The position numbers were made by a program, and so were the translations under genes. DNA of 64,000 nt from a virus, in the IMG/VR virus record IMGVR_UViG_3300042691_047309, positions 111,895 through 175,894 of that record; one strand, written 5' to 3'. Below, piece after piece: positions 1,311-51,566 of this stretch. The notes below the pieces were generated by a model. The model made no database searches. It worked only from the letters and a program-made list of their open reading frames with translations, and was not told the DNA's origin. Every line of letters starts with the position of its first letter. Position 1 is the stretch's first letter.

Positions 1311-1697
1311 ATGAATATGGGGTTTACAAGATATTGGGAATTTGAGAGATTAAATAGTGAGAAGTTTAAAGAGTTCTCTAATATCTGTCAGTTACTTATA
1401 GATAATATGGATATTCCACTTGATGATGTCACCGTTAATGAAGCACAAGTAAGATTCAATGGAGTTGATGATGATGGTCATGAAACATTCAATTTCTCTT
1501 TAAATAAAGATGGATTTAACTTTTGTAAAACAGCTACTAAACCTTACGATGAAGTTGTGTATGGTTGTCTTTATATTGCTAAGTTAATATTCGAAGATAG
1601 TGTAAAGATAAATCAAGATTGTAAAGAAGACGAACCTTATGTAAAAAAAGTAATATCTATTCTAAGAGAAAATAAACTTAATCAACTATTAAAATAA
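1311..1697 (+). CDS. conserved phage hypothetical protein with C-terminal RENKLNQLLK motif
   Basis: MGFTRYW...FNG...HETF...FNFCKT..KPYD pattern of a widespread viral hypothetical family. Confidence 0.6.
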   Translation: MNMGFTRYWEFERLNSEKFKEFSNICQLLIDNMDIPLDDVTVNEAQVRFNGVDDDGHETFNFSLNKDGFNFCKTATKPYDEVVYGCLYIAKLIFEDSVKINQDCKEDEPYVKKVISILRENKLNQLLK

Positions 1698-1704
1698 AAA
1701 AAAT

Positions 1705-2175
1705 ATGATAACTAAAGAAAACCTGAAAATAAAACTTACTAGATTAAGAAGAATAATTAAAGTTTTTTATTTAAAAACATTTAAAACTCTTGGTAAAGAA
1801 AAGAGGCTTAAAAAACCAAAAAAACTTACCGAGTCTGAAGATACTGCTTGTGAGATATTTTTAACAATATTACACAATAAGGATAGTAAATTACATTATG
1901 ATATTCAAACACAGGAATGTTATATAAGTTCTTCAGATAAAACACTTTTTGTCTTTTTAGAAGCTGGTAATGTTAAGATTATTAATTCTGTTTTTGGGTA
2001 TGATGTGCATATACGTCAAGACTTAGAGGCTTATCTACTTGACAAATTTATTAGAGAAATGAGTATTAGAAGAAATGCTTTCAAAAAAGAAGTTCTTTCT
2101 AAAATAAATCACTCTTTAGACAGCACTCTTGATAGAATTAAAGACTGGGATAAAGAATCAAAAAGTAAAAAATAA
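1705..2175 (+). CDS. hypothetical protein
   Basis: 156 aa ORF in operon. Confidence 0.55.
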   Translation: MITKENLKIKLTRLRRIIKVFYLKTFKTLGKEKRLKKPKKLTESEDTACEIFLTILHNKDSKLHYDIQTQECYISSSDKTLFVFLEAGNVKIINSVFGYDVHIRQDLEAYLLDKFIREMSIRRNAFKKEVLSKINHSLDSTLDRIKDWDKESKSKK

Positions 2176-2224
2176 TTAGGTTTATCAATTAATAAATACT
2201 ATATTTGTAAAAAATATTCTAAAA

Positions 2225-3718: not shown

Positions 3719-3720
3719 TC

Positions 3721-3749
3721 AAAAAGACCAACCTATAGTTGGTCTTTTT
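3721..3749 (+). terminator. intrinsic terminator
   Basis: aaaaagaccaac-ctata-gttggtcttttt hairpin right after stop. Confidence 0.8.
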
Positions 3750-3772
3750 ATTTTAATAAATATATTTGTAAT

Positions 3773-4339
3773 ATGAAAGTAATTTTTTTGGATTTTGATG
3801 GTGTTATGTGTCTCTCTGAGCAATGGGGTGGACGAGCTAAAAAAATGCTAAAGTTTCAAAGAGAATTTCCGGGTTCAACTGAAGATGATATGCCAGCTTG
3901 GATTAAGCTAGATAATTTTGATTTTAAGGCAACTAAAGTTCTTAACTCTATTTTATTACATCACGATGTTGAGATAGTTTGCTCTTCAGATTGGAAATTA
4001 TTTGCTACTTTAGATCAACTTCAAGATATGTTTGATAAATACGGTGTGATTAAATCACCAATAGATGTCACACCAACTCTTGTTAAGTATGAGTCTAAAT
4101 CTCAATTCACACAAAGTGAATTAGAGCAATGGAGAGTTAAAGAAATTAAAACGTGGTTAGATTTACATCCAGAAGTAACACACTGGGTTGCTGTTGATGA
4201 TATGGACTTAGGTGAGAAGTTTGGTCCTATTTCTGGAAATTCCAATGGTGGTCTAACTAACTTCATATTAACTAAGCAGTATATTGGAATTAAACAATCC
4301 GGAATAAAAGAAAAAATCATTAAGTTCTTAAATGATTAA
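3773..4339 (+). CDS. HAD phosphatase, Swiss-Army-knife RNA-repair type (HAD_SAK_2-like)
   Basis: IFLDFDGV, SSDW, EIKTWL, WVAVDD motifs. Confidence 0.85.
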   Translation: MKVIFLDFDGVMCLSEQWGGRAKKMLKFQREFPGSTEDDMPAWIKLDNFDFKATKVLNSILLHHDVEIVCSSDWKLFATLDQLQDMFDKYGVIKSPIDVTPTLVKYESKSQFTQSELEQWRVKEIKTWLDLHPEVTHWVAVDDMDLGEKFGPISGNSNGGLTNFILTKQYIGIKQSGIKEKIIKFLND

Positions 4340-4829
4340 TGTTTTAGAAATGGACATGAGTATTGAATACAAGTTCGCGTGGAATGTAGCTGCTCGAGCT
4401 TGTTTCAGTATTTTCTATATCCTACCAGACTGTATGTTACTTTATAGACATCAAGTGTCGGAACCATATATCTGGACTAAATTCGGATGTAATCACCCTG
4501 ATAAAATAGATTTAGTAAAACTAGATGGTAAAAATCTAATGTTATTTCATGTTGATGTTTATAAAGAAAAAACTCATAAATTTAAAGACCTAATTGATTA
4601 TTGTCAGTCTAATAACATTGATATCTGGATTCCTTTTCCACTTAAAAACCTTTGGAGAACTGAAGAGCCTCATCTTCAGATTATGAAAGATATACTAGAT
4701 AATTATCAATACAGCACTTACGATTTAACTGGAATGAACTACAGGAGTGAAAATGAAATAAGTAGATTGGTTAAAGAAAAAACGAAACCTATATTAAGAG
4801 ATATAAAATTAAGAAACTTATTTGATTAA
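4332..4829 (+). CDS. hypothetical protein with C-terminal LRDIKLRNLFD motif
   Basis: 165 aa ORF overlapping the upstream stop. Confidence 0.55.
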   Translation: MINVLEMDMSIEYKFAWNVAARACFSIFYILPDCMLLYRHQVSEPYIWTKFGCNHPDKIDLVKLDGKNLMLFHVDVYKEKTHKFKDLIDYCQSNNIDIWIPFPLKNLWRTEEPHLQIMKDILDNYQYSTYDLTGMNYRSENEISRLVKEKTKPILRDIKLRNLFD

Positions 4830-5080
4830 TATTCTATTTTCTCAACATCATCTAAATCAACATAGTATTCATTACCATCGATTTCTACTGTTATTAAACC
4901 ATCTTCATCTATATCGACCGGAGTAATTGGATCTTTTGGATCATTATCAGGATATTCTTTAACAATTGTAGAATAGATAACTCCTCTTTTCTTAATACAT
5001 TTTATTATATCATCAATTGTGATAAGAGTTCCTTCTTCATTATTCTGTTTGAAATCCTCAAATAATTTTATCCATTTCAT
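4826..5080 (-). CDS. small putative virion protein (N-terminal MKWIKLFEDF tag)
   Basis: 84 aa; TAATATATA at 5085-5093 (-). Confidence 0.6.
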   Translation of the reverse strand: MKWIKLFEDFKQNNEEGTLITIDDIIKCIKKRGVIYSTIVKEYPDNDPKDPITPVDIDEDGLITVEIDGNEYYVDLDDVEKIEY

Positions 5081-5084
5081 AAAT

Positions 5085-5108
5085 TATATATTAAAAACTT
5101 AATATATA
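5085..5108. promoter_or_regulatory. back-to-back putative late promoters (TAATATATA on both strands)
   Basis: 5085-5093 (-) and 5100-5108 (+), each 4-6 nt from a start codon. Confidence 0.65.
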
Positions 5109-5114
5109 AAAAGT

Positions 5115-5927
5115 ATGAAGTATATTAAAAGATTCAACGAAGAGCTTAAACCAGAAACTTATATTAGTGCTGGTTATAGATTAAAAAATTTACCAGGTGG
5201 TGGAAAAAGAAGATCTTCACCTCTTATTGATTATGGTTTTGGGAAAAAGTATGGTTTCTATAAAATGCACTGGGCTAATGGTTCATCTCTTTTAGGAAAA
5301 GATTTAACATTTACTAATCTAATATGTGAGAGTTACTTTGGGAGACCTGACTCTTCAAAAATTGAGACTTTTAGGTATTCAGCAGAAGATGCTGTGGAAC
5401 TGTGGAAACAAGGTAATCATCCTCTTTGTATGACTTTTAATTTTGTTTTTCAATCTACTGAAGAAACAAAAGATAAATTAAATAGTAGTAGTGAACTTAA
5501 TACCAACTGTCCAATGTTCTCATTTGAGATTTGGTTTAGTAACTGGGAAGAAGGTTTAGATTCTTATAATTGGGATTATGATACTGAAGAGCCAATGACT
5601 GGAGATACCGTAGTTGATTTAAATGGTATGTATAAATGGACTAATGAACTTACAATCTATAAGAAGAAACCTGTTAAAATGTATTACTCAAAATCATATC
5701 CTTTCTGTGGTATATTTTCAGATAGAGCTTCTGCTTTGAAATTCAAAAAAGAATTAAACAGTTTAATGGATCCACATAAAGAAAAAGTTATGGAACTTTT
5801 AAGCTGTGTTAATGCTTCTGCTGACGACATAGAAGATTTTGAAGATAGAATCAATAAAATAAGTTTAAATCATCTTTTCTCAGTTGATGAAAAAACAACC
5901 AATTGGTTCACATACAATGAATTGTAA
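5115..5927 (+). CDS. paralog family member 1, putative head-internal protein
   Basis: MKYIKRFNEELKPETYISA...FSDRASALKFK. Confidence 0.65.
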   Translation: MKYIKRFNEELKPETYISAGYRLKNLPGGGKRRSSPLIDYGFGKKYGFYKMHWANGSSLLGKDLTFTNLICESYFGRPDSSKIETFRYSAEDAVELWKQGNHPLCMTFNFVFQSTEETKDKLNSSSELNTNCPMFSFEIWFSNWEEGLDSYNWDYDTEEPMTGDTVVDLNGMYKWTNELTIYKKKPVKMYYSKSYPFCGIFSDRASALKFKKELNSLMDPHKEKVMELLSCVNASADDIEDFEDRINKISLNHLFSVDEKTTNWFTYNEL

Positions 5928-5940
5928 ATAAATTAATAAT

Positions 5941-6666
5941 ATGAAACACTTAAAGAAATTTAACGAAGAACTTAGACCACAGACTTATATGTCTGCTGCT
6001 AGAAAATTAGATAAATTAGGTCACCACGATAGAGCAAATGCTTTAAAAGACTGGGCTAAAGAAACTGAGAAAAAAGAAGAAATGATTAAGTGGCAAGACC
6101 GCATACAAGATTATGCTCAGTTTGGAACATTTAAATTGACTATAAAAAATCCAGAAACTAATGAAACATTAACTGGTGATTTTCATTTAGATGTTAATTT
6201 TGATGATTTATCATTTAGTGATGAGCCTGAAAGTGGTATAACTTTCTTCTTAGGTTTAATTCCAACTTCTGAAGATTTAATCTATCAGTATATGGAACTT
6301 TGTCCAGATTATGATTTCGGAAACGGTTTCTTCTGGGGTAAAATCTTTAATTTACAATATGAATTAGGAGATACTGTTGTATTTACTAAGTGGAATATGT
6401 GGGACTATGATGATGAAATGAATGGTAAAATAAATTTTGCTGACAGAGCATCTGCTAACAAGTTCAAGAATTTAATTATACAAATATTTAGTAATCCACA
6501 ATTAGGTTATCCATCTGGATATACCGACGCTGATGACTTATATGAAAAATTAACTAATACTATCTTAGCAGAGAACTCATTCTCTTCTGATTATGGATTT
6601 AAATTAGAAGATGCTGCTGAATACATGAGAACAATTAGTCCAAATTTACTTTCTTCTACACTATGA
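5941..6666 (+). CDS. paralog family member 2
   Basis: MKHLKKFNEELRPQTYMSA...FADRASANKFK. Confidence 0.65.
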   Translation: MKHLKKFNEELRPQTYMSAARKLDKLGHHDRANALKDWAKETEKKEEMIKWQDRIQDYAQFGTFKLTIKNPETNETLTGDFHLDVNFDDLSFSDEPESGITFFLGLIPTSEDLIYQYMELCPDYDFGNGFFWGKIFNLQYELGDTVVFTKWNMWDYDDEMNGKINFADRASANKFKNLIIQIFSNPQLGYPSGYTDADDLYEKLTNTILAENSFSSDYGFKLEDAAEYMRTISPNLLSSTL

Positions 6667-7523
6667 GATACTTAAAAAGATTTAATGAAGAGTTAAAAGC
6701 ATCTACTTACAAAAAAGCAGGTGAGAAATTCACTCAGATGGGTCACAAAAGAAGAGGATCTGAATTATTAGATTATGCAACTCAAGTTGAATTAAAAGAA
6801 AAATATCAAAAATTAAGACAGGCTCAGGATGAAAATAAGGAGTATGGTTTATTTGATATTACGATGACAAGAGGTTATGGGTCAAATAAGAAAGATGTAT
6901 TTTCTGGTAAATTTTATCTACAAATGTGTTTAGAATCTGATTGGTTCAAAGACCAATTATGGGATTGGTTTTATGAAGGTATGGATTGGCATATGGGAAT
7001 TGCTATGGAGTTTGCCATTATACCAGCTGATGACGAAACACTTAGAATGTTGGAAACAAGTGAAGACGGAGATATAGTGTATTTTAGAAATAATACTATG
7101 TGGGGAGATGACTATAGATACTGGACAAATAGACTTTGGCTTACACTCTGTGATAAAAATGCAGTTCCTCTTTATATAGCAGGTGCTGGTGGATTTGAAG
7201 ATAGAGATTCTTTTACATTCCATTTTAATTCAAGATCAGAAGCTATGAAATTTAGAAACTTATTGGCTAATACATTAGAAGGAAAATCTGATTGGGGTTC
7301 TTATAATGGTAGAACGATTTCTGACCAATTAAAATCAACAATTATTATGGATGAAGAAGACTGGAGATCAAAACTAATGGATAAGTTTTTACCGGGTAGA
7401 GAAGATGAATATGATATTAATAATCCAGATACTTGGCCAAAAAATACTTTTACAGAAGATACTTACAAAGGAGCTATCGAGGCGGTTAAGAGAATGTCAG
7501 TAAATGGTTTATATAGAGATTAA
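6663..7523 (+). CDS. paralog family member 3
   Basis: MRYLKRFNEELKASTY...FNSRSEAMKFR...NGLYRD. Confidence 0.65.
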   Translation: MRYLKRFNEELKASTYKKAGEKFTQMGHKRRGSELLDYATQVELKEKYQKLRQAQDENKEYGLFDITMTRGYGSNKKDVFSGKFYLQMCLESDWFKDQLWDWFYEGMDWHMGIAMEFAIIPADDETLRMLETSEDGDIVYFRNNTMWGDDYRYWTNRLWLTLCDKNAVPLYIAGAGGFEDRDSFTFHFNSRSEAMKFRNLLANTLEGKSDWGSYNGRTISDQLKSTIIMDEEDWRSKLMDKFLPGREDEYDINNPDTWPKNTFTEDTYKGAIEAVKRMSVNGLYRD

Positions 7524-7526
7524 GAG

Positions 7527-8798
7527 ATGAAGTATTTAAAAAGATATGAAGAAGCTGTCGGTGTTAGATTGAAATCAGAATTGAAATCAACAGTTGAAGA
7601 TTTGCTTATTGATTTAAGAGATGATGAATTTGAAACTAAAGTATCTGAAATAGATTATCATTCTCAAAAAGTAAAGGTCAAAGTCAATATACAAAGAGAT
7701 AGAGAATTTACTTATGAAGATATAAAACCTCAAATTGAATCTATTTGGTCTTATTTAAATGAAGAAGGATTTACAATTGAAAACTTCACTAGTGTAGAAG
7801 ACTGGGAAAACTTTGAAGAACCAGAAGACGAATTTACAATTCATCAAAAAGATAAAGGTTATGTGTGGTCCACTGGTGAAGATGGTGAGATTAAATCTAT
7901 TGACAAAGAATTTCAAAGAAGACCAAATGTCATGATTTCACCAATATATAATCCAGAAAACTTTGATAGAATTCAAAAGTGGATATTTGAGATTTCATTT
8001 ACTAAAGATAAAATTGTAGTTGATAGAAAGAGAGGTCATCTTACAACTAATGAAGAGTTAAAACCACAAACATATATAAGTGCTGCTGATAAACTAACTA
8101 AGTTAGGTCATATTAAAAGACCTGAGCAATTAAAATCTTGGGCTGAAACTATTAAGCAAAGAGAAATAGATACTAAACACAAAATGGCTTTAGAAGAAGC
8201 AAAAAAATTAGGACAATTTCAATTAAGATTTGTTGGTAGAGGAAGTGAAATAAGGTTTGCAAACTGTTACATTCAACTTTATTTTAATTCCGATTATTAC
8301 CTAAGTGAGATGTTACCAGAGTGGTTAGATGGTGAGAGAAACACACTTTGGTCACAGTTTATGTTTGGGATTCATCCGGTTTCTTCAGAAGATTTAGAAG
8401 TTTTAAATTGGTTTTCTGGTGATATTAAAGGTTATACAAATAGAGCGAATGGTATAATCTGGTTACAAGATGTTTATATCAATCTGACAAATCAAAACTG
8501 CAAAGATGAAGATGGTGTGACTTTACCTATGACCCCTTCAGGTGTAGTTTCAATCGAATGCTCTGAATTTAGTGAAGTTTATTTTGCAAATAGAAGAGAA
8601 GCTATTAAGTTTAGAAATTTATTAGTCGATCTTTTCGAGGGAGATATAGATTACATACAACCGAATGGTAAAGACTTTAAAGAAGATATAATTGAAACTT
8701 GGTGTGATCATGAAGAAAGACCAGTTGAACTTTCAGAGTTAGAAGATTTTATTGATAAACTTAGAGTAATGAGATTAAATTCATTATATAGAGATTAA
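7527..8798 (+). CDS. paralog family member 4, fused to an extra N-terminal domain
   Basis: MKYLKRYEE; internal NEELKPQTYISAADKL...FANRREAIKFR...NSLYRD. Confidence 0.65.
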   Translation: MKYLKRYEEAVGVRLKSELKSTVEDLLIDLRDDEFETKVSEIDYHSQKVKVKVNIQRDREFTYEDIKPQIESIWSYLNEEGFTIENFTSVEDWENFEEPEDEFTIHQKDKGYVWSTGEDGEIKSIDKEFQRRPNVMISPIYNPENFDRIQKWIFEISFTKDKIVVDRKRGHLTTNEELKPQTYISAADKLTKLGHIKRPEQLKSWAETIKQREIDTKHKMALEEAKKLGQFQLRFVGRGSEIRFANCYIQLYFNSDYYLSEMLPEWLDGERNTLWSQFMFGIHPVSSEDLEVLNWFSGDIKGYTNRANGIIWLQDVYINLTNQNCKDEDGVTLPMTPSGVVSIECSEFSEVYFANRREAIKFRNLLVDLFEGDIDYIQPNGKDFKEDIIETWCDHEERPVELSELEDFIDKLRVMRLNSLYRD

Positions 8799-8814
8799 TT
8801 ATTATATTTACAAA

Positions 8815-9987
8815 ATGAAAATAAAAAGATATAGACAATTCTTAGAATCAAACTCTAATGATATGTGGAACATTATTCCACAGTCAGTGAAAGATTTGCA
8901 ACAACTTTTTAAATCAAAAGAAAAAAAATTATATGTTGTTGGAGGTGCCGTTAGAGACTTTCTAACAGGAGATACACCAAAAGACTTTGACTTAGCAACT
9001 GATGCACTTCCAGATGAAGTATTAGAAATATTAGGAAGTAAATATAAAACTAACCTACAAGGTAAAGCATTTGGAGTGGTCGTGGTTTTCACCAATGATC
9101 AACCAGAAGGAATGGAGATTGCAACATTCCGAGAAGATGTTTCAAAAGGTAGAAACCCTGAAGTTAAATTAGGAGTTACCATTGAAGATGATGTTAAAAG
9201 AAGAGATTTAACTTATAACGCACTTTTCTATGATTTAGATACTAAAGAGATTGTTGATTTAACTGGAGGACGTGAGCATTTAGCAAAAGGAATAACTCAA
9301 ATGGTTGGTGATCCTATTGAAAGATTTGATGAAGATTCTTTAAGAATTTTGAGAGCTTTTAGATTTGCTTCAAGATATGGACACCCTTTACATAAAGATA
9401 CTGAAGCGGCAATTGAAAAAAGAAAACAATTAGAAAATATAGATCCTGAAACCGGTGAAATGAAAAGAATTTCACAAGAAAGAGTTTGGGAAGAGATGAA
9501 CAAGGCGTGGAAACAAGCAAAAGACTATAGAAACTATTTACAATTCTTTACTAAGTTTGATATGTGGTCTGAAGTTTTTCCAGGCTCTGAAATCAATACC
9601 GATCTGGTTGATAGTAAAGACTTTGTGGTTGTTATTGCTAACTTATTTAAGAATGAAAACACGGATGGTTTAGAAAAGAGATTGGTTCAAGACTACAGAA
9701 TAGATTCTCAAATGGCATCAAAAATAGTTTTCTTAATTAGATTATTAGAATTGACACCAGATACAGCATTTGATTTACATAAGTCAAAATTACAATGTCA
9801 TATTGAAGATAAAACTATTTTAGAATGGTTTAGAGTTTTGGGTGTAAATGATACTGTTAAAATTAAATTTGTAGAATACAAACCAACTACTTCTGCTCAG
9901 GAATTGATGTTACAGGGTTTTAAAGGAAAGGCTTTAGGTGATGAGTTAAAAAGACTTGAAATTGAAAATTTCAAGAAGATTTTATAA
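8815..9987 (+). CDS. cca: tRNA nucleotidyltransferase (class II CCA-adding enzyme)
   Basis: VGGAVRD, DFDLAT, RRDLTYNA, EDSLRILRAFRF, ISQERV, C-terminal GFKGKALG. Confidence 0.9.
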   Translation: MKIKRYRQFLESNSNDMWNIIPQSVKDLQQLFKSKEKKLYVVGGAVRDFLTGDTPKDFDLATDALPDEVLEILGSKYKTNLQGKAFGVVVVFTNDQPEGMEIATFREDVSKGRNPEVKLGVTIEDDVKRRDLTYNALFYDLDTKEIVDLTGGREHLAKGITQMVGDPIERFDEDSLRILRAFRFASRYGHPLHKDTEAAIEKRKQLENIDPETGEMKRISQERVWEEMNKAWKQAKDYRNYLQFFTKFDMWSEVFPGSEINTDLVDSKDFVVVIANLFKNENTDGLEKRLVQDYRIDSQMASKIVFLIRLLELTPDTAFDLHKSKLQCHIEDKTILEWFRVLGVNDTVKIKFVEYKPTTSAQELMLQGFKGKALGDELKRLEIENFKKIL

Positions 9988-10019
9988 TTTTCTCATTTTA
10001 AAAATAGATATATACTGCT

Positions 10020-10484: not shown

Positions 10485-10535
10485 ACTTTTAGTCTAATTA
10501 TAGATATAGGAATCTATAATAAAAAAATAAAATAT

Positions 10536-10808: not shown

Positions 10809-10810
10809 TA

Positions 10811-24467: not shown

Positions 24468-25110
24468 AAATAGATTTAAAAGATTTGGGGGAGATTACAT
24501 TCCTGATATCATAGAGTATCTTTCTGATTATATTAGTAAAGATCCTAGTGTTACTATTTCAGTTGGTTGTGACTCTATTCAAAAGAGACGAAGAACTGTT
24601 TATGCAATCACAATTATGATGTATAATACCGATTTAAGACATGGGGCTCACGTTGTTTTTTTCAGAGAGTCTTGTCCTAAAATTAGAGACAACAATGAAA
24701 GACTTTTTAAAGAAGCTCAATATTTACATGATATTGGAACTTACTTAGATGGTGAGCTTTCCAAATTTTATAAAAGAACAGACTTATCAGAAAGAGAAAT
24801 GAAAAGATATAAGTATCACCTTCTTAAATGTGCGGGTGAATATGGACACGTTCCTCTTCACCAAGATGATGCGGTAATGAATGCTCTGTTTCTCAGTCCT
24901 GCTGATATGATTGATTATAGAACTGTTGATATACATGTTGACTTTAATCCATTTGAGGGTTCAATAAATGAAAAAGGATTACATAAAAATAAGTCGTATG
25001 CTGCTTATAAAAGTTATACACCTTGGTTGAGAGGCATGGGCTTTAGAACTTGGGCAAAACCTCTCGCCCATGCCAGTACATCAGCCGCAGACTTACTTTT
25101 ACAGGACTGA
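24460..25110 (+). CDS. RNase H-like YkuK (DUF458) family protein
   Basis: SVGCDS, RLFKEA, DIHVDFN, ASTSAAD. Confidence 0.75.
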   Translation: MFKNRFKRFGGDYIPDIIEYLSDYISKDPSVTISVGCDSIQKRRRTVYAITIMMYNTDLRHGAHVVFFRESCPKIRDNNERLFKEAQYLHDIGTYLDGELSKFYKRTDLSEREMKRYKYHLLKCAGEYGHVPLHQDDAVMNALFLSPADMIDYRTVDIHVDFNPFEGSINEKGLHKNKSYAAYKSYTPWLRGMGFRTWAKPLAHASTSAADLLLQD

Positions 25111-25469
25111 TGTTTGAATTAAACTCACATATGATTCAAAAAATGGGGTGGTTTTCATATCACCCTTCTATTGGACTTGGGTTTGATTTGCCTGGTGTTT
25201 TTCATAGTGATCCTTTTGTTAGATTTTTTTTCATTGACAAGTCTAAAAATGTTGTTTTCATTATTAAAGAAATGACTCCTGATGAAAAACAAAAGACAAA
25301 AAAAGAATATAAATTTATAGATTTTAAAACACCAATAAACATAAAAGCTACTAAGATGAATATAGTAGAATTTAACTCAAATGAAGAATTATGGAAACTG
25401 GTTATTGAAAATGAGGCTTGTGGTGAAAATTATCAAAGACACTTTAGACTAAACAAAATATTAAAATGA
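25110..25469 (+). CDS. hypothetical protein with C-terminal RHFRLNKILK motif
   Basis: likely start MFELNS overlapping the upstream TGA. Confidence 0.5.
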   Translation: MFELNSHMIQKMGWFSYHPSIGLGFDLPGVFHSDPFVRFFFIDKSKNVVFIIKEMTPDEKQKTKKEYKFIDFKTPINIKATKMNIVEFNSNEELWKLVIENEACGENYQRHFRLNKILK

Positions 25470-27548: not shown

Positions 27549-27770
27549 ATGAAGTACAAACCCGGTGATATAGTCATTAAAACCACAGGTGGTAATAAAA
27601 TGACAATCTTTGATAAGATATCCGATGGTGTTTATAAATGTCTTTGGTTTGTTGAAAACTCAATGAAGGAATCCGTATTTAATGAGGAGGAATTAGTTAC
27701 TTTAAATGAGTATAAACGGTTTCTGAAAACGGAAGAAAGAGAAGATAAGATTAATCAATTACTGGGTTAA
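27549..27770 (+). CDS. YodC/DUF2158-like protein with C-terminal REDKINQLLG
   Basis: YKPGDIV..TTGGNKMT...CLWF...F.EEEL. Confidence 0.7.
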   Translation: MKYKPGDIVIKTTGGNKMTIFDKISDGVYKCLWFVENSMKESVFNEEELVTLNEYKRFLKTEEREDKINQLLG

Positions 27771-31112: not shown

Positions 31113-32671
31113 TTATTGATAGTTATCGTTTTTGTAATATCTCCTACTTTTACAAAGTAGATTCCACTTGATAAATTTGATAAATTAATATAAGAGTCAT
31201 TAGTAGAGATTAAATTCTTACCTAAATTATCTGATATCGAGACTATAACATTTCTGTCTGACTTGATATTTATGTAATCAGTAGCAGGATTTGGATAAAC
31301 AACTACATCTGAATTAGAAATTTCAGAAACAGTCAAAAATCCACCTTGAAATTTAGGGTTGGTGAAGTCAGCTCCTGTTGATACTGTAGAATTATTATTT
31401 AGTCTGAAATCTGGATTATTTGAAAAAGCATCAACCCAAGAAATTTGATCTATTGATTTAGTAGTATCATTTGAATTCTGATTAAAAAATGTTGAATAAA
31501 ATTGTGTAGTAGCTGTTACTAAATTAAATCCGGTTGTGAATTCAACTAAATCATTATTTGCGAAAACTAAATTTCCATTTGATATATTTGTTTCAACTGG
31601 TAATCCTTCAATTGATAGCCCCTTTTCCCAACCAGTAACTAAAGAGTTAAATATTGAAATTGAAGAGTTTCTTCTTATTCTGAAAGATTTCTCAAATTTC
31701 TCACCAACTGGAAGTTGAATACTACCATCACCTTTTGGTCCTATGATTGTGAAGTTTGAAAATATAGCCGATGTTTGTGGTGTATTTGATGAACCTTGAG
31801 CATCATTGTCTGATTCAAAACAATTTGAATCACCCGCAGCATCTGATAAATATTGAGTTCTTATTGATAATCCAAATTGAACTTTTCCTCTATATCCAAA
31901 ATCAGTATCGAAATCATCATCAGTTCCTTTAAAAGCAATCAAGTGTCTGCAATTAACAGTTCCGCCAAACCATTCAAATGAATCATCTCCTGAAAAAGAA
32001 ACTTGAACGAAATCAACTTCTGTTTCACTACCTACGGATCCAAAAGTCAAACCATTTATTTCTTTGTTAGGCTCTAGTGCAATTCCTGCAAATTCTATTC
32101 TAACATATTTTAATATTCCCGAATTGTCTAAGTCATTACTTCCACCATACTCGGTATTGGAAGTTGGTGAAATTCCTTCAATATTTGCAACTCCACCAGG
32201 TTGGTTATTAGTTGCTTGTCCTAAGATCACCAGACCACCCCAATCACCTTCAGCTCTTAGACCGACATTTTGTGAAGAAGTGAAAACTATTGGATTTGTT
32301 GATGTGCCTTCTGCTATTATTTTTGAGCCTTTTGTTATAATCAAACTACCTTGAGTGGAACCATCTCCTCTGATTATAGTTCCTGGTAGAATTGTTAATA
32401 CTGCTCCATTTTTAACATAAACTTTATTTTCTAATAGAACTACTCCAGAGATGGTTGTATTTGTAGTAATATCGTTATTTAAGGTTGAAGTAATTTGAGG
32501 ATAATAGGTATTTTCAGGATCGAAATTTGACCAACCATCTGTCCAGTCTGTCTGAGATGTTCCATCTGTCACCGGAAATGCTCCTTTATAGCTTGTTGAT
32601 GTCCAAAATGCTTGCTGACTTAATAACAAATTAGAAATGCAAATTGTAATTAATGTAATTAATTTTTTCAT
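31109..32671 (-). CDS. secreted beta-helix-like protein with T9SS type A C-terminal sorting domain
   Basis: signal peptide; GDWGGLVILG, DNSGILKYVRIEFAG, DDSFEWFGG; CTD VYPNPATD...INLSNLSSGIYFVK. Confidence 0.85.
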   Translation of the reverse strand: MKKLITLITICISNLLLSQQAFWTSTSYKGAFPVTDGTSQTDWTDGWSNFDPENTYYPQITSTLNNDITTNTTISGVVLLENKVYVKNGAVLTILPGTIIRGDGSTQGSLIITKGSKIIAEGTSTNPIVFTSSQNVGLRAEGDWGGLVILGQATNNQPGGVANIEGISPTSNTEYGGSNDLDNSGILKYVRIEFAGIALEPNKEINGLTFGSVGSETEVDFVQVSFSGDDSFEWFGGTVNCRHLIAFKGTDDDFDTDFGYRGKVQFGLSIRTQYLSDAAGDSNCFESDNDAQGSSNTPQTSAIFSNFTIIGPKGDGSIQLPVGEKFEKSFRIRRNSSISIFNSLVTGWEKGLSIEGLPVETNISNGNLVFANNDLVEFTTGFNLVTATTQFYSTFFNQNSNDTTKSIDQISWVDAFSNNPDFRLNNNSTVSTGADFTNPKFQGGFLTVSEISNSDVVVYPNPATDYINIKSDRNVIVSISDNLGKNLISTNDSYINLSNLSSGIYFVKVGDITKTITINK

Positions 32672-32835: not shown

Positions 32836-33180
32836 ATGAAACTTGACATAAATGAAGTATATCATAACTATATTGTTAGAGTGGTAATTTTTTCACTCTT
32901 CACTTATAAGAGATTAGTTAGGCAGCCAAATGTATATAAACAATCTGTTCTTTCGTTTGTGACTAAAAGAGTTGCATGGAAAATACATCTTGTTATAGAT
33001 ACTGGTCTTCAAATGTCAAAAGATGAAGAAAGAGATATAGTATTAAATGAGTTACTCGAAGGAATTGAATCTGATTATCTAACAACAGTAACTGTTACTT
33101 TTACAACACCACTTAAAGAAATAACAATAGAGGTTGATTTAAAAGATGAAGATAAATACCAAAACTTTCTGTACTTATAA
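32836..33180 (+). CDS. hypothetical protein (internal RDIVLNELL motif)
   Basis: 114 aa; TAATATATA at 32823-32831. Confidence 0.5.
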   Translation: MKLDINEVYHNYIVRVVIFSLFTYKRLVRQPNVYKQSVLSFVTKRVAWKIHLVIDTGLQMSKDEERDIVLNELLEGIESDYLTTVTVTFTTPLKEITIEVDLKDEDKYQNFLYL

Positions 33181-33904: not shown

Positions 33905-34120
33905 ATGTTTATCTGTGTTAGTAATACATCAAATAGAAGTGAATTAGAAATAGGAAAATACTATGACTTATTTAAACATGAGCAACACCCAAAAGTTGTT
34001 TGGGTAAAAATACCCGATTCATCTAATACTGTTGGTTACAGAACTATTCAATGTTATTTAGCTGACTTTAAAAATAAAGGTCAATGGAGAAATGATCAGA
34101 TTGATAAGATTTTAGATTAA
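33905..34120 (+). CDS. small hypothetical protein with C-terminal WRNDQIDKILD
   Basis: 71 aa after TATATTTG at 33893-33900. Confidence 0.55.
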   Translation: MFICVSNTSNRSELEIGKYYDLFKHEQHPKVVWVKIPDSSNTVGYRTIQCYLADFKNKGQWRNDQIDKILD

Positions 34121-35492: not shown

Positions 35493-36347
35493 ATGAGAGG
35501 ATTTAGAATTTACAACAAACAAGAACTATTCAATTCGATTGAAAAAATCACGGTTGAAAAAATTGAAGACCAAGTTATCACAAAGTATAACGGTCGTGTC
35601 ACACAGGTGGCAAATGTCTCAAAAAGATATGAGATATTTGATATTGTTAAATATCTAAAAGATAAGATTGAACTTATTGAACAAAACTTTACTATTTCTA
35701 AATATCAATTGTTGATTAGAAAAGGTCAACAATACCTTCAACTTATTTCTGATAGTGTTGAAATCGGAGGTATTCGTTTTTACAAATCCTTTTACATACT
35801 TAACTCAACTGATAAATCACGTAGGCTTAGTTTCTATGCGGGTCTACACTCTGAAAAATATTATTTCATCGGAGCAAACAATGTAGGTATGTCAAGAAAA
35901 CATCTTACTGGTGTCACTGAAGCTGCTGATGTTGCTTCAACCGCATTGAATGGTGAAACTTTTGATGAACAAATTAAAGCTCTTCAAAACTTAGTCGGTC
36001 ACCGTATTCAACTCTCTAAAATACGTGAGGTTATCTTAGGTGATAAAGAGGAAATTCCACAAATCAATCATCGTAAATTTGATGCGTTTAAGAACTCTAT
36101 TCGTTACGCTGATAGTGATGGTCTTATCAGACTTACCAGAGAACAACGTTCTCAATTATATACTGACTCTGAAAGAATGACAGAAGTTAAAGAAGATTTT
36201 TACTTAGATGCTTTCTGGGTTTTCGGAACTTATATGAGATTGTTTAACAAACAAGACTCACATATCATTAAAAATGAAACAGACCGTATTATGAAGATTA
36301 CTCAATGGGCTGTTAGAAACTCAGTGTTGGAGGCACTTGGTATCTAA
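35493..36347 (+). CDS. DUF932-like hypothetical protein, C-terminal RNSVLEALGI
   Basis: VSKRYEI, ILNSTDKS, RKH.G patterns; TATATTTG at 35481-35488. Confidence 0.5.
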   Translation: MRGFRIYNKQELFNSIEKITVEKIEDQVITKYNGRVTQVANVSKRYEIFDIVKYLKDKIELIEQNFTISKYQLLIRKGQQYLQLISDSVEIGGIRFYKSFYILNSTDKSRRLSFYAGLHSEKYYFIGANNVGMSRKHLTGVTEAADVASTALNGETFDEQIKALQNLVGHRIQLSKIREVILGDKEEIPQINHRKFDAFKNSIRYADSDGLIRLTREQRSQLYTDSERMTEVKEDFYLDAFWVFGTYMRLFNKQDSHIIKNETDRIMKITQWAVRNSVLEALGI

Positions 36348-43252: not shown

Positions 43253-43311
43253 TACATAATATTATTTTTACAAACTATATATTATTTTTTTTATATAAAA
43301 AATAAAAAATT

Positions 43312-43767: not shown

Positions 43768-43769
43768 GA

Positions 43770-44615: not shown

Positions 44616-44618
44616 AAT

Positions 44619-44867
44619 ATGAATCCTGATATGTCGGATATTCTTATGATGAACTCTAAGTTCTATGGTGATTATTACTGTAAGAAAGTAAAAGATTTTT
44701 TTGATGACGGTCAAATAGTAACTGTTTATTCACACTACTCATATAGACTTTTTACAATAGGAAAAAATAAAAGAATATTCAGAATTCATCATACAGATTT
44801 TGGAACTACACTTTTTACAAAAGAAGAATGGAGAAATAAAAAAATTAATAGAGTTTTAAAAAAATAA
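44619..44867 (+). CDS. hypothetical protein with C-terminal WRNKKINRVLKK
   Basis: 82 aa. Confidence 0.5.
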   Translation: MNPDMSDILMMNSKFYGDYYCKKVKDFFDDGQIVTVYSHYSYRLFTIGKNKRIFRIHHTDFGTTLFTKEEWRNKKINRVLKK

Positions 44868-44883
44868 TTTCTATATTTGCCAT

Positions 44884-45240
44884 ATGTTATCGAATAAAGA
44901 AAAGAAACGAAGACAACACGAGAAAGAACTGAAGTCACTTAGAAATAAGATGAGTAAAAACATCATATGGTTTGACGCTCTCAATACCACTCAACAATAT
45001 GACCTTCTTTTTGCTTGGAAGAGAGAGAAAAAATCAAACACACGAACTAAACCTCAAAAGAAAACAATTATAAGAAAAGTGGGTGGATTCTTGAATGGTA
45101 GATATCAGACTATGAGAAAAGAAATCGAAATAGTGTCTTATCCACCAAACTTTAAACATTTTCTTAAAAATATGAAACCAAAATTCAGCGTAAGTGTCTC
45201 AAAAATGAGACAGGCTCAATTAAAACATCTATTGAAATAA
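44884..45240 (+). CDS. basic hypothetical protein with C-terminal RQAQLKHLLK
   Basis: 118 aa; TATATTTG at 44872-44879. Confidence 0.5.
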   Translation: MLSNKEKKRRQHEKELKSLRNKMSKNIIWFDALNTTQQYDLLFAWKREKKSNTRTKPQKKTIIRKVGGFLNGRYQTMRKEIEIVSYPPNFKHFLKNMKPKFSVSVSKMRQAQLKHLLK

Positions 45241-45255
45241 ATTAAATAATAATAT

Positions 45256-46607: not shown

Positions 46608-46702
46608 TATGGTAGTGTATTTAGTTGGTGGGATAGCAATAGGAATTATGATTGCACCTACAGTTAATCAAATGATTAAAGATTACGTTAATAGAAAATA
46701 AT

Positions 46703-47347: not shown

Positions 47348-48240
47348 CAAACATTTTAGATGGAAGAATCGTATCAGGTCAAATTTTATCCAATATCAAA
47401 GATAAAATCGAAGGTCACATAGAAAAAAGCCAATCAAGATTAGGATATCAAATTTCAAAACCATCTATGGCGATAGTTCTTGTTGGAAATAATCCAGCAT
47501 CTGAGTCTTATGTCAATGGAAAAACAAAAGCTTGTGAAAAAGCTGGAATAAACTATAGTGTTATTAGATTTCCAGAAAAAATAACCTCATTTGATCTTTT
47601 AGAAGAAGTAAAAAGATTAAATAAGTCTTCTTATGATGGATTTATTGTTCAACTTCCATTACCAGAACACATTAAGTCGGATTCTATTATAAACGAGATA
47701 AGTGCATATAAAGACATTGATGGATTTCATCCTCTTAACTTTGGTAAAATGTCACTTGGTCAGAAGTCAATGAGACCAGCAACTGCTTATGGTATATTAA
47801 AACTAATCGAATGGTATGAAATTGACACTAAAGGAAAACATGTCGTAGTTATTGGTCGCTCTAATATTGTCGGGAAACCTATTTCTATTATGTTAGGTAA
47901 CGACTTTAACATTGGAAGAGCTACCGTTACATCTTGTGATATAAACACTCCTAAAGAACTCCTAATTGAAGAAACTAAGAAAGCTGATATAGTAATTGTT
48001 GCAGTTGGAAAACCTGGTTTATTAACAGCTGATATGATTAAAGAAGGAGTGGTTGTGATTGATGTAGGTATCAATAGATTAGAATCTGGTAAATTAGTTG
48101 GTGATTGTGATTTTGATTCTATTTCTAAGAAGGCTTCTTGGATTACTCCAGTACCAGGTGGTGTTGGACCAATGACTATATCTGGTTTGATTTTGAATAC
48201 TTATGAGGCTTGGAAGATGAAAAATTTTATTGAAGAATAA
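47335..48240 (+). CDS. folD: methylenetetrahydrofolate dehydrogenase/cyclohydrolase
   Basis: ASESYV, VQLPLP, KDIDGFHP, GRSNIVGKP, DVGIN, TPVPGGVGPMT. Confidence 0.95.
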   Translation: MQTLANILDGRIVSGQILSNIKDKIEGHIEKSQSRLGYQISKPSMAIVLVGNNPASESYVNGKTKACEKAGINYSVIRFPEKITSFDLLEEVKRLNKSSYDGFIVQLPLPEHIKSDSIINEISAYKDIDGFHPLNFGKMSLGQKSMRPATAYGILKLIEWYEIDTKGKHVVVIGRSNIVGKPISIMLGNDFNIGRATVTSCDINTPKELLIEETKKADIVIVAVGKPGLLTADMIKEGVVVIDVGINRLESGKLVGDCDFDSISKKASWITPVPGGVGPMTISGLILNTYEAWKMKNFIEE

Positions 48241-48659
48241 TGGGATTTATAGGAGCAACAACTTTATTAAATCATGATGTATCTATTAACCCAAGATCAA
48301 AGATGACTTGGTCTCAAAAAATAGATGATATATCCTCTTACTTAGAGAATCCAGATTTTGAGGTTATAAACCCAACCGTAAAAATATGTGAGTATTTTAA
48401 AGATAAGATAGGATATTGTCTACCATCATCAAGTTTCTTTGTTATTGATAATAGTAGATTAGAGATTTTTAATCAACCATTAAATTGCTTAGATTTTTAT
48501 AACTATGATGATTTAATAAAATATTTAAGTGATGAGAAGAAAACTATTTATGTAAGTAAGATTACATTAAACTTTGGTAGAATATACAAAGCTTTTATCT
48601 ATGAGATAGATAATTTACCTAATATAAGAAATCATAAATTAGAAAAAATAGGAATATGA
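48240..48659 (+). CDS. hypothetical protein with C-terminal RNHKLEKIGI
   Basis: 139 aa. Confidence 0.5.
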   Translation: MGFIGATTLLNHDVSINPRSKMTWSQKIDDISSYLENPDFEVINPTVKICEYFKDKIGYCLPSSSFFVIDNSRLEIFNQPLNCLDFYNYDDLIKYLSDEKKTIYVSKITLNFGRIYKAFIYEIDNLPNIRNHKLEKIGI

Positions 48660-48913
48660 AAGTAAAGTGTTTATCTAATGAAAGTTGGGATCTTCTTCAC
48701 AATTTGCGTGATAAACTAACGATTGGTAAAATATATGATGTTATAAAAATTGAACAAATACCATTCTCACCACATAGATATGATGATCCAAGTGGTCCCT
48801 TTTATAGAATAAAATGTGATAATGGAGAAATAAAACACATTGATGCAAATAGATTTCGCGAATTGACTATGTATGAAAAAAGAGAATTAAAATTGAAAGA
48901 TTTAGGTATATGA
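48656..48913 (+). CDS. small SH3-like protein with C-terminal RELKLKDLGI
   Basis: VKC...LTIGKIYDV...IKCDNG; paralogous to the next ORF. Confidence 0.55.
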   Translation: MKVKCLSNESWDLLHNLRDKLTIGKIYDVIKIEQIPFSPHRYDDPSGPFYRIKCDNGEIKHIDANRFRELTMYEKRELKLKDLGI

Positions 48914-49143
48914 GAAAGTTTTATAAAATAGTTTGTATAAATAATAAACCAATTCCCGGTAGTAGCGAAAGAACTCAAAGCCTCACGGAAGGAAAAGTCT
49001 ATCAAACTTATGACAATCCAGATTATAGAGATGTTTGTGTTGTAAATGATAAAGGAATAGAAGTAAACTATTCGAGTTCTAGATTTATAACATTAGAAGA
49101 ATTTAGAGAAAATAAATTAAATAAAATATTAGAATGCAGTTAA
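48910..49143 (+). CDS. small SH3-like protein with C-terminal RENKLNKIL
   Basis: IVC...LTEGKVY...VVNDKG...RF. Confidence 0.55.
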   Translation: MRKFYKIVCINNKPIPGSSERTQSLTEGKVYQTYDNPDYRDVCVVNDKGIEVNYSSSRFITLEEFRENKLNKILECS

Positions 49144-49472
49144 TACTTGGAATATTATTTGGAACATTAGCACAAATACTTGTTTTTTTTCAGATACAAG
49201 GTAGTTTGAAATATCCTTTCTTACAGAATAATCAATGGATAGTTCTGCTTTCTGGTGTTCCAATAACTTGGCTTTTTGTAGAATCGGTAAAATATATTTA
49301 CGATTGGAGTGGAGGTCAACTTTGGCCCGGAAGACTTATCGGATTTTCAATTGGTATAGTTGTCTTCACAGCGATGTCAATTATATTATTTGGAGAGGGA
49401 ATAAGTGCTAAAACTGGAATTTGTTTAGTTCTATCAGTTTTGATTCTACTTATACAAATTTTTTGGAAATGA
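49134..49472 (+). CDS. four-TM membrane protein (DMT/SMR-like)
   Basis: 112 aa, four hydrophobic helices, LFGE. Confidence 0.55.
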   Translation: MQLILGILFGTLAQILVFFQIQGSLKYPFLQNNQWIVLLSGVPITWLFVESVKYIYDWSGGQLWPGRLIGFSIGIVVFTAMSIILFGEGISAKTGICLVLSVLILLIQIFWK

Positions 49473-49498
49473 ATATAAATAAAAAATAAAATAATATT

Positions 49499-51262
49499 AT
49501 GAATGTATTAAGAGGTGGTGAGTTTTTGATTAAAGAATCAAACTGTGATGAAACTTTTATACCAGAAGAGTTTAATGAAGAGCAATTGATGATTGCTGAG
49601 ATGTGTGAAGACTTCATCGAAACAGAAGTTTATCCTAATCTAGATAGAATCGATTCAATGGAAGATGGTCTGATGGTTTCTATTTTGGACAAAGCTGGTG
49701 AATTAGGATTATTAAGCATTTCAATCCCTGAAGAACTAGGTGGAATGGGTTCCGACTTTGTAACTTCAATGATTACAACTGAAAAAACTGGAACTGGTCA
49801 CTCTGCGGCTGTTGCACTTTCAGCTCACACTGGAATTGGAACTTTACCAATACTATACTTTGGAAGTGATGAACAAAAATTAAAGTATATTCCAAAATTA
49901 GCCACTGGTGAATTAAAGGCTTGTTATTGCTTGACAGAGCCAAATGCGGGTAGTGATGCTAATAGTGGAAAAACCAAAGCGGTGTTGAATGGTGATAAGT
50001 CTAAATATCTAATCACAGGACAAAAAATGTGGATAACAAACTCGGGGTTTGCTGATATATTTGTTGTTTTTGCTAAAATTGATGATGATAAAAATCTATC
50101 AGCATTTATTGTTGAAAAAGAATATTCAGGTATTTCTTTAAATCCTGAGGAAAAGAAAATGGGTATTAAAGGTTCTTCAACTCGACAAGTATTCTTTAAT
50201 AACTGTGAAGTTCCGGTGAAAAATTTACTTGGTAAAAGAGAAGATGGTTTTAAAATTGCACTTAATATTCTCAATATCGGTAGAATTAAATTAGCAGGAG
50301 CTACACTTGGTTCATCTAAAAAGGTCATCGAAGATACAATTAAGTATTCGCTTGAAAGAGAACAGTTTGGAAGACCAATTGCTAAATACTCTGCGATAAA
50401 AAATAAAATTGCAAATCAAATTATTAAAACATACGCATCAGAATCAGCGCTATATAGAGTATCAAAAAATATTGATGACTTAATCAACCAATCAATTGCT
50501 AATGGTAAAACTAAATCCGAATCATTACTAGATGCTATTAAAGAATATGCTTCTGAAGCAGCTATGTTAAAAGTACATGGCTCTGAAACATTGGATTATG
50601 TAGTAGATGAAGGAGTTCAGGTATATGGTGGTATGGGGTATTCCGCAGAGGCTCCTATGGATAGAGCATATAGAGATTCGAGAATTAATAGAATATTTGA
50701 AGGGACAAATGAGATTAACAGAATGTTATCAGTTGATTTTATACTAAAAAAGGCAATGAAAGGTGAATTAGATTTAATGTCACATGCTACAAAGATAGCT
50801 GGTGATTTGATGTCTATTCCGGATTTTTCAACTGAAGAAGAATCAACCTTTGATAAACATAAAAAATATATCAAAAACTTTAAGAAGATATTATTAATGA
50901 TAGCAGGGGCTGCTGTGCAGAAATTAATGATGACTTTATCAAAAGAACAAGAGATACTAATGAATCTATCTGATATTATGATTGAAACATACGTATCCGA
51001 ATCTCTTTTACTAAGAGTTGAAAAATTAGTAAAACTAAGAGGTGAAGAAAACTGCCAGTATGAAATTGAAATTATGAAGAGTTATATTTATGATGCTTCT
51101 GATAAAATTAACAAATTAGGAAAAGATACACTAAATTCATTTTCATCAGGTGATGATTTAAGAATAATGTTAATGGGTTTGAAAAGATTTACAAAACAAG
51201 ATCCTTTTAATATTACAAAGTCTAAAAGACTTATCTCTGAAGTTGCAATGAGTAAAAACTAA
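49499..51262 (+). CDS. acyl-CoA dehydrogenase (VLCAD-like)
   Basis: YCLTEPNAGSDA, GQKMWITN, KMGIKGSST, REQFG, GGMGY, RIFEGTNEI. Confidence 0.95.
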   Translation: MNVLRGGEFLIKESNCDETFIPEEFNEEQLMIAEMCEDFIETEVYPNLDRIDSMEDGLMVSILDKAGELGLLSISIPEELGGMGSDFVTSMITTEKTGTGHSAAVALSAHTGIGTLPILYFGSDEQKLKYIPKLATGELKACYCLTEPNAGSDANSGKTKAVLNGDKSKYLITGQKMWITNSGFADIFVVFAKIDDDKNLSAFIVEKEYSGISLNPEEKKMGIKGSSTRQVFFNNCEVPVKNLLGKREDGFKIALNILNIGRIKLAGATLGSSKKVIEDTIKYSLEREQFGRPIAKYSAIKNKIANQIIKTYASESALYRVSKNIDDLINQSIANGKTKSESLLDAIKEYASEAAMLKVHGSETLDYVVDEGVQVYGGMGYSAEAPMDRAYRDSRINRIFEGTNEINRMLSVDFILKKAMKGELDLMSHATKIAGDLMSIPDFSTEEESTFDKHKKYIKNFKKILLMIAGAAVQKLMMTLSKEQEILMNLSDIMIETYVSESLLLRVEKLVKLRGEENCQYEIEIMKSYIYDASDKINKLGKDTLNSFSSGDDLRIMLMGLKRFTKQDPFNITKSKRLISEVAMSKN

Positions 51263-51272
51263 AATATTATCA

Positions 51273-51566
51273 GTGATTAACAATTGGATTATAAAGGATA
51301 GAATAAAAAGTGGTATAATTTCATTTGAGGTTGGTGATGAAATAGTTATTTTTTGGAGAAAAGGAAATGGCTATCCGAGAACTATAATTGATAATAAAAT
51401 ATACGTTATCAGTAGAATTGAATCTGATAATTTATTTTTAAACGAAAAAAATATTATAAACTCAAAACATTTTCCATTAAGAGTGCATAAAACCTATATG
51501 ATACCTCTGTATGTTTTAAGAGAAATCAAATTAAATAGTCTGTTTGACGAAACAAAGTTAATATAA
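51273..51566 (+). CDS. hypothetical protein with LREIKLNSLFD motif
   Basis: 97 aa. Confidence 0.5.
   Translation: MINNWIIKDRIKSGIISFEVGDEIVIFWRKGNGYPRTIIDNKIYVISRIESDNLFLNEKNIINSKHFPLRVHKTYMIPLYVLREIKLNSLFDETKLI

Follow-up and report, generated by a model that had tools for sequence, protein, structure and literature searches.

About one protein in seven of a Bacteroidota phage (approximately 37 of 251 open reading frames, ORFs) carries a short C-terminal peptide tag of the form R-x-x-K-hydrophobic. The phage is represented by a 175,894-bp IMG/VR virus contig (IMGVR_UViG_3300042691_047309, hereafter G000; 29.5% G+C, with a CheckV completeness estimate of 73%), and the window considered here is the stretch of 64,000 nucleotides (nt) at bases 111,895-175,894 of that contig, whose own numbering is used below unless a genome is named with the coordinates. 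We propose that the tag may act as a portable docking label of early accessory proteins that is read by one partner, a reading that seems to fit better than that of a generic helix and to which we assign a probability of roughly 0.55. The closest database relatives of G000 are the uncultured phages LR745206 and LR756502 (635-642 kb), and further close relatives are the IMG/VR contigs G001 (476 kb, 97% complete) and G002 (281 kb, 94% complete).

The pattern R[DENQHK].[KRQV][LI]..[LIV][LGFMY] was searched over all 251 ORFs of G000, a set obtained by greedy ORF calling. It matches 34 times, and 30 of the 34 matches end 0-6 residues before the C-terminus. Per-protein residue shuffles lead one to expect 1.56 matches in total and 0.064 at the C-terminus, shuffling of the last 30 residues alone yields 0.076 C-terminal matches, and the reversed proteins contain none; the positional enrichment proposed in an initial annotation of the window is thus borne out against a composition-matched background. 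A hidden Markov model (HMM) made from the tails adds about seven weaker members with I or V at the last position, which brings the set to about 37. Tagged proteins are 51-284 amino acids (aa) long, with a median of 120 aa versus 190 aa for all ORFs of G000, and 76% of carriers have at most 150 aa. The initial annotation had counted about 15 proteins. All 12 of its C-terminal instances are found at the ends of their genes and belong to a set that is real and larger than proposed, whereas the four that it placed internally or near the N-terminus are no more than chance would give, since shuffles yield 1.6-4.3 internal matches per proteome. One of these, LDRKLNVVLG, is out of register with the motif; the internal match in the gene at 49499-51262 sits within a stretch R-I-F-E-G-T-N-E-I, which we take to be an acyl-CoA-dehydrogenase signature. 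The 12 tagged genes of the window and one borderline case are given here, each with its nine-residue tag core and the residues that trail it; E-type promoters and the N-terminal capsid-type tag (N-tag) are described further below.

1311..1697, plus strand: 128-aa ORFan without Pfam or PHROG family; tag RENKLNQLL+K at 1665-1691; in a unit behind the E-type promoter at 61
4332..4829, plus strand: 165-aa ORFan; tag RDIKLRNLF+D at 4797-4823; in a unit behind the E-type promoter of 3773
25050..25469, plus strand: ORFan of about 120-139 aa; tag RHFRLNKIL+K at 25437-25463, kept by the G001, G002 and LR745206 orthologues
27549..27770, plus strand: 73-aa protein with a DUF2158 beta-core (residues 6-49) and a tail helix; tag REDKINQLL+G at 27738-27764
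33905..34120, plus strand: 71-aa ORFan; tag RNDQIDKIL+D at 34088-34114; E-type promoter 4 nt before the ATG
35493..36347, plus strand: 284-aa conserved viral protein; tag variant RNSVLEALG+I at 36315-36341; E-type promoter
44619..44867, plus strand: 82-aa ORFan; tag RNKKINRVL+KK at 44832-44858
44884..45240, plus strand: 118-aa ORFan; tag RQAQLKHLL+K at 45208-45234; E-type promoter
48240..48659, plus strand: 139-aa ORFan; tag RNHKLEKIG+I at 48627-48653; stop and following start share ATGA
48656..48913, plus strand: 85-aa ORFan; tag RELKLKDLG+I at 48881-48907
48910..49143, plus strand: 77-aa ORFan; tag RENKLNKIL+ECS at 49105-49131; the G002 orthologue ends in REIQLNKIGLQ
51273..51566, plus strand: 97-aa ORFan; tag REIKLNSLF, followed by 6 residues, at 51519-51545
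7527..8798, plus strand: 423-aa putatively late protein with N-tag and the tag-like end RVMRLNSLY+RD (8763-8789); scores below the HMM members listed and is a borderline exception

The tag is under selection as a peptide and not as nucleic acid, because synonymous codons vary freely at its conserved residues: the Leu/Ile positions are encoded by TTA, TTG, CTA, CTC, CTT, CTG, ATT, ATA and ATC. The distance from the tag core to the stop codon ranges from 0 to 6 codons, and the context beyond the stop differs from gene to gene: the next start may overlap, a short or a long gap may follow, or the neighbouring gene may be convergent. Many of them do overlap or abut the next start, as would suit a peptide conserved only because of a DNA or RNA signal located where genes end (a promoter, a recombination site or a ribosome site for the following gene). 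Yet several have a convergent gene or a long gap downstream, and this context together with the variation of synonymous codons and of the distance to the stop rules out a DNA-level motif and leaves such an origin with practically no probability.

The tag is also portable, as its carriers have unrelated bodies. BLASTP finds no match among tagged proteins at E <= 1e-3, which rules out paralogy. Among 40 tagged proteins from G000, G002, LR745206 and LR756504, a single one scores above the cut-off of a Pfam family, and the ten that were compared with PHROGs all lacked a family there. These searches agree with the earlier proposal that the tag is appended to unrelated folds, YodC/DUF2158 and a viral family included. 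The protein encoded at 27549-27770 matches PF09926 (DUF2158/YodC) with 27.8 bits at a cut-off of 22.3; its residues 6-49 cover positions 3-50 of the 50-position model, and its tail (residues 50-73) lies beyond the model. More than 250 close homologues retain E-E-R-[ED]-D-K-[IL]-N-x-[LI]-L, and the residues that trail the tag in this orthologous family are G, D, KDSN or NSFTN. Among homologues of 67-89 aa, drawn from a search of 1.84 billion representatives, the tail R-x-x-x-[IL]-x-x-[IL]-[LIF] is kept down to about 35% identity. The weakest matches, of 46-66 aa, end just past the C-x-W-F core and have no tail; because these distant cores end without it, the tag is not an integral part of the DUF2158 domain. 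The question raised initially, whether bacterial homologues lack the tail, is thereby answered for distant DUF2158 cores in general, but not for bacterial ones specifically, as their source is given neither as bacterial nor as viral. A search of 185,579 bacterial and archaeal species genomes retrieved no copy of the DUF2158-plus-tail protein. The tail is invariant in the 791 homologues of the 284-aa protein, whose body has no Foldseek match in the PDB and no Pfam family, and which clusters beside DUF932 by language-model features alone (score 0.97).

Comparison of G000 with G002 provided 19 reciprocal-best pairs with a strict-pattern match in one or both members. Both members match in 14 pairs; in the remaining five, the motif of the partner is degenerate or displaced. 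Tagged proteins diverge more quickly, their median identity between the two genomes being 44% versus 57% for the other proteins. Within 16 orthologue pairs, however, the nine-position tag core is 69% identical versus 49% for the bodies (P = 1e-6), and five key tag positions are kept in 95%. The forms with L9 and with G9-hydrophobic swap between orthologues, which argues for one specificity.

The anatomy of the tag was derived from 77 tails of G000 and G002, in which Arg at position 1 is fixed by construction of the pattern. Position 2 is D, E or N, position 4 is Lys in 61 of the 77, positions 5 and 8 are Ile or Leu, position 6 is N, D or K, and position 9 is L (39), G (16), F (10), I or V. Where Gly stands at position 9, the following residue is Ile or Leu, and this variant may represent a Gly-capped helix end. 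A helix start is suggested upstream of the core by Glu at -2 and by S, T, D or N between about -5 and -3, and a helical wheel places R1, L5, L8 and L/F9 on one face with K4 flanking it. AlphaFold models the tail as a terminal helix, with less confidence than it does the body: in the DUF2158 protein, residues 61-72 are modelled as a helix with a predicted local distance difference test score (pLDDT) of about 67 versus about 90 for the body, and in the 284-aa protein a C-terminal helix spans residues 256-281 with a pLDDT of 45-64. The free carboxylate is probably not read, because 0-6 residues follow the tag core.

Such a helix might simply be structural or self-associating, capping, stabilising or oligomerising small domains that have no partner in common, and might have spread because many bodies can use it. 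Most carriers are indeed very small, the Gly-hydrophobic end could be an ordinary helix cap, and AlphaFold models nothing but a plain helix. A generic helix has, however, no need of an invariant Arg, a near-fixed Lys and a preference for N/D at position 6 across unrelated bodies. Neither would it be confined to one promoter class and kept off N-tagged proteins, nor shift collectively to R-K-x-K-I-[DE]-x-L-[LY] in the related phage LR756504, and the pLDDT of the tail lies below that of the body, so that no confident packing is predicted. We consider this explanation unlikely. A membrane-targeting amphipathic helix of the MinD/FtsA kind would likewise be short, C-terminal and amphipathic, and the mean net charge of the tails, +1.3 over 16 residues (standard deviation 2.0), would suit it. 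But the tag has three hydrophobic positions only, its invariant Arg lies amid the hydrophobic face, its flank is often acidic and the DUF2158 tail is net negative; since its sequence specificity is also far above what membrane helices need, membrane targeting appears very unlikely indeed.

Tagged genes belong predominantly to one promoter class. The E-type motif, TAnnTTTG, lies 4-23 nt before the ATG of 27 genes. In 15 of these it is accompanied by TTG or TTTG within the -33 window, usually some 19-21 nt upstream; the resulting consensus TTTG-N19-21-TAnnTTTG corresponds to the Bacteroidota sigma-A promoter. The L-type motif, tTTAATATATA (TTAATATATA), stands before 36 genes, most N-tagged genes included, and also precedes the head-tail adaptor gene and the unit with the baseplate wedge gene. 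In the window it is located 4-25 nt before the starts of N-tagged or virion genes, for example at 5115, 11719, 33196, 42088 (minus strand) and 61125, and it is a candidate late promoter. Directly upstream of C-tagged genes there are six E-type and no L-type motifs, and directly upstream of N-tagged genes no E-type and 14 L-type motifs. By transcription unit, the C-tagged genes divide into 21 E-type, 5 L-type and 8 without class, and the N-tagged genes into 0 E-type, 28 L-type and 1 without class. We infer that E-type units are early and L-type units late. The initial assignment of the tag to early or middle units is therefore upheld for units with host-type promoters in G000, and it does not extend to the five tagged genes in late units. 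The gene at 32836, which had been named as an exception, has an L-type motif, and its internal tag match is at chance level. In G002, promoter assignment of the tagged clusters is far less complete.

The two terminal tags also tend to exclude each other. With the N-tag scored by a profile for a start of the MKxLKxFxxF type, 34 proteins are N-tagged and 34 C-tagged in G000, and the overlap is 1 versus 4.8 expected; in G002 the numbers are 62 and 42, and the overlap is 0 versus 6.4 expected (P = 0.0007). That they never share a protein, as first proposed, is nearly but not strictly correct, given the one overlap in G000 and, in addition, the borderline protein of 7527-8798. The gene at 7527-8798 is part of five tandem genes at 5115-9987 with starts of the MK[YH]LKRFNEEL type, of which at least this one has a tail resembling the C-terminal tag. 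The same data bear on the idea that the tail is another signal for packing proteins into the head, in the manner of encapsulin cargo peptides or of the C-terminal helix of the P22 scaffold. The R-x-x-K spacing and the -LGI endings are reminiscent of those peptides, and the phage clearly employs an N-terminal tag of capsid type. Nevertheless, tagged genes have host-type promoters, the late-type motif of the virion genes never stands directly before a tagged gene, and the C-tag is nearly exclusive of the N-tag, so that capsid loading strikes us as improbable. A search for the Gp23 family gave no match even in control genomes and is hence uninformative.

The distribution of the tag was assessed by whole-record counts of the back-translated DNA pattern, with the same pattern read backwards as control. 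Pattern and control counts were 110 and 16 in LR745206, 85 and 26 in G001, 46 and 19 in LR756504, 15 and 12 in LR756501 (735 kb), 7 and 6 in LR756508, 14 and 17 in Lak-A1 (26% G+C), and 7 and 7 in Ralstonia phage RsoM2USA; Lak-A1 serves as a composition-matched natural negative control. Tagged ORFs number 43 of 419 in G002, 47 of 958 in LR756504 and 0 of 1057 in LR756501, the form in LR756504 being the variant R-K-x-[KR]-I-[DE]-x-L-[LYI]. The tag is thus clade-specific: G001, G002 and LR745206 carry it, LR756504 has a variant of it, and Lak-A1, LR756508 and LR756501 lack it. De novo clustering of C-terminal windows retrieves it in G000 and yields nothing convincing in LR756508 and Lak-A1. The LR records used here are comparable in size to the genomes of more than 634 kb (n = 5) that have been placed in the Mahaphage clade, with predicted Bacteroidetes hosts (Al-Shayeb et al., 2020; PMC7162821).

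The clustering also brought out a different portable tail in LR756501, where [DE]-P-Y-G-E-E-x-W followed by 0-4 residues ends 38 or more proteins whose bodies are unrelated and whose lengths span 55-843 aa. A capsid-type start, MI.K[FY]..FE, is present as well in about ten of these DPYGEExW proteins; examples of the tail are encoded at 500330-503452 and 552409-555773 of LR756501.1. In RsoM2USA (MG752970.1), 52 proteins end in F-[DE]-L-Q-[DE]-W-L-I-[DE]-N-G-[FY]-E. Most of them constitute one paralogous family of about 190-210 aa that starts with MKLNEI, and a few, of 75-80 aa and 250-457 aa, have the tail alone in common. Two large genes on the minus strand of the window at 28323-32671 (929 and 520 aa) have signal-peptide-like starts, and the C-terminal ends encoded there resemble, by eye only, an outer-membrane barrel and a Bacteroidota secretion-sorting domain.

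If the tag is read by one partner, this reader could be encoded by the phage itself. With about 10-15% of the proteome tagged, one would sooner expect a reader that is processive or of high capacity than a single stoichiometric site. The proteostasis genes of the phage comprise DnaK, DnaJ and GrpE, a ClpC-like protein that lacks the N-domain, PrkA/YeaH/SpoVR, and a MoxR AAA_5 protein with a DUF2201 peptidase/VWA protein. The coordinates of several of them are as follows.

G000 63421-65304: DnaK, phage-encoded
G000 47539-48618, minus strand: DnaJ, phage-encoded
G000 49473-49940, minus strand: GrpE, phage-encoded
G000 7502-9619, plus strand: ClpC-like Hsp100 of 705 aa with AAA, AAA_lid_9, UVR, AAA_2 and ClpB_D2-small domains
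G000 70988-72910, 73007-74272 and the next gene, and G002 88500-93200: complete PrkA/YeaG-DUF444(YeaH)-SpoVR trio

In G000 and G002 alike, the interval from dnaJ to grpE contains two C-tagged genes. The ClpC-like protein has no Clp_N domain; it has an acidic N-terminal stretch of 60 residues and a GVGF loop, and its gene is flanked by C-tagged genes. The GVGF loop is confined to the G000/G002 form, and the homologues in relatives differ in N-domain and loop. A total of 23 proteins of G002 have a homologue in LR756504 and none in LR756501, and among these the very well conserved PrkA/YeaG-DUF444(YeaH)-SpoVR trio (50-66% identity between G002 and LR756504) and GrpE stand out. The trio occurs in G000, G002, LR745206, LR756502 and LR756504 and is absent from LR756501, LR756508 and Lak-A1; within the tested Bacteroidota megaphages it is limited to tag carriers. 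No mechanistic information was found in the literature on YeaG/YeaH/YcgB.

The hubs suggested for the tag included a sliding clamp, the MoxR/VWA proteins and a protease, and none of these three proposals is sustained. None of G000, G001 and G002 yielded a phage clamp, MoxR/VWA genes are equally present in genomes without the tag, and no protease is conserved together with it. The first of these deserves comment, as the spacing [DEN]-x-x-[LI]-x-x-[LI]-[LF] and the C-terminal position call to mind the PIP-box and the L-x-x-L-F tails of the T4 family, and would thus fit a clamp-binding tail. Searches with PF09116 (gp45-type) and PF00712 (DnaN) nevertheless gave no credible match in G000, G001 or G002, and no polymerase or other replication protein is tagged. 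Replication families had no match among the tagged proteins tested. The longest tagged proteins have 284 aa in G000 and 307 aa in G002; LR745206 has one tagged protein of 731 aa, without Pfam family. Aromatic residues are moreover rare at tag positions 8-9, and forty competitors for one clamp pocket seem implausible; we regard clamp binding as very unlikely. A search with PF00136 gave nothing useful, with no detectable PolB in G002. At G001 84454-87936, a family-B DNA polymerase match is restricted to an N-terminal ORF of 508 aa, the gene being seemingly split, and has no homologue in G000 or G002.

Several observations weigh against a docking label with a single reader. None of the candidates clamp, ClpP, DnaK and the ClpC-like unfoldase without N-domain has specific support as a tag reader. 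ClpP can be rejected, as G001 alone among the genomes searched encodes it. Genes for the ClpC-like protein, DnaK, DnaJ and MoxR/VWA also occur in relatives without the tag, and three further candidates fall accordingly: DnaK, which is found in tag-less LR756501, LR756508 and Lak-A1; MoxR AAA_5 with the DUF2201 peptidase/VWA protein, both present in LR756501; and the ClpC-like unfoldase as a specific reader, which has homologues in all Bacteroidota megaphages tested. The PrkA trio exists in RsoM2USA as well, which does not have this tag, and its co-occurrence with the tag is a weak lead because the genomes compared are few and related. The promoter classes rest on sequence, with eight tagged genes lacking a class and five placed in late units by carry-over. 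Finally, a helix that merely stabilises or pairs small proteins retains the small likelihood given to it above.

We still favour the docking label, with which the anatomy, the restriction to one class of genes and the coordinated variant of LR756504 agree better than with a generic helix, and which would work as follows. A recognition helix of about 14 residues would consist of an N-cap, an acidic turn, R1, K4 and hydrophobic positions 5, 8 and 9, followed by 0-6 free residues, and would present a docking face of the type hydrophobic-x-x-hydrophobic-hydrophobic with a fixed Arg one turn upstream. It would be joined to the C-terminus of small, fast-evolving accessory proteins that are transcribed early by the host sigma-A polymerase, and would be kept off late, virion-directed proteins. 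One conserved partner would read it, so that the whole class of proteins could be handled together. Regarding the fate of the tagged proteins, our tentative preference goes to a hand-over to an AAA+ unfolding or proteolysis machine, with timed removal or remodelling of early proteins; this is possible rather than probable. Recruitment of the carriers to a host machine is a less likely purpose, and a role in localisation is doubtful.

Full-text literature searches brought up no description of such a C-terminal tail. Should one partner read it, at least a tenth of the 'dark' genes of the largest known phages would make up one functional class, and the tail would offer a common handle: a pull-down peptide, a transferable tag and an annotation rule for hundreds of metagenome ORFans. 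The division between an early C-tag and a late N-tag would indicate that these phages sort their proteome by terminal labels, and the different tail of LR756501 suggests that such labels may be swapped between lineages. We speculate, though we hold it to be rather unlikely in this full form, that phages of the Mahaphage group label their early accessory proteome by lineage-specific tails (the R-x-x-K-hydrophobic helix, the Lys-rich variant of LR756504 and possibly DPYGEExW of LR756501), and that a phage AAA+ machine clears, remodels or relocates the carriers at the late switch. The PrkA/YeaH/SpoVR trio and the ClpC-like unfoldase without N-domain would be the candidate readers.

Terminal peptides that commit unrelated proteins to one machine are known from several systems. 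The capsid-targeting sequence (CTS) of T4, found on IPI-III and Alt, is a short terminal peptide on unrelated proteins that directs a class to one machine. The tag of G000 differs from it by its opposite terminus, its sequence, its host-type promoters and the lack of an evident cleavage site, and this phage possesses in addition a CTS-like N-tag on at least 34 proteins. The ssrA tag and the MuA-type ClpX signal are likewise portable C-terminal peptides that make unrelated proteins clients of one machine. The tag of G000 is, however, unrelated in sequence, helical with a fixed Arg, and encoded in the genome on about 40 genes instead of being added co-translationally; an ssrA-like reliance on the extreme C-terminal residues and the carboxylate also does not agree with the 0-6 variable residues that follow its core. 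Clamp-binding tails, such as the PIP-box and those of T4 gp43, gp33 and gp55 on gp45, share the C-terminal position, the shortness and the hydrophobic spacing, but the tag has far more carriers, is aliphatic and not aromatic, and is attached to no replication or late-transcription protein. The DPYGEExW tail of LR756501 is a lineage-specific tail on many unrelated proteins as well, in a different sequence and a different phage lineage. By analogy only and without homology, the two-turn amphipathic helices with basic flanks of LxxLL co-activator motifs and of MIM1 of ESCRT-III, which dock into a groove, are comparable to the tag. MIM1 helices are C-terminal on several ESCRT-III proteins and are read by the MIT domain of Vps4, an AAA+ ATPase.

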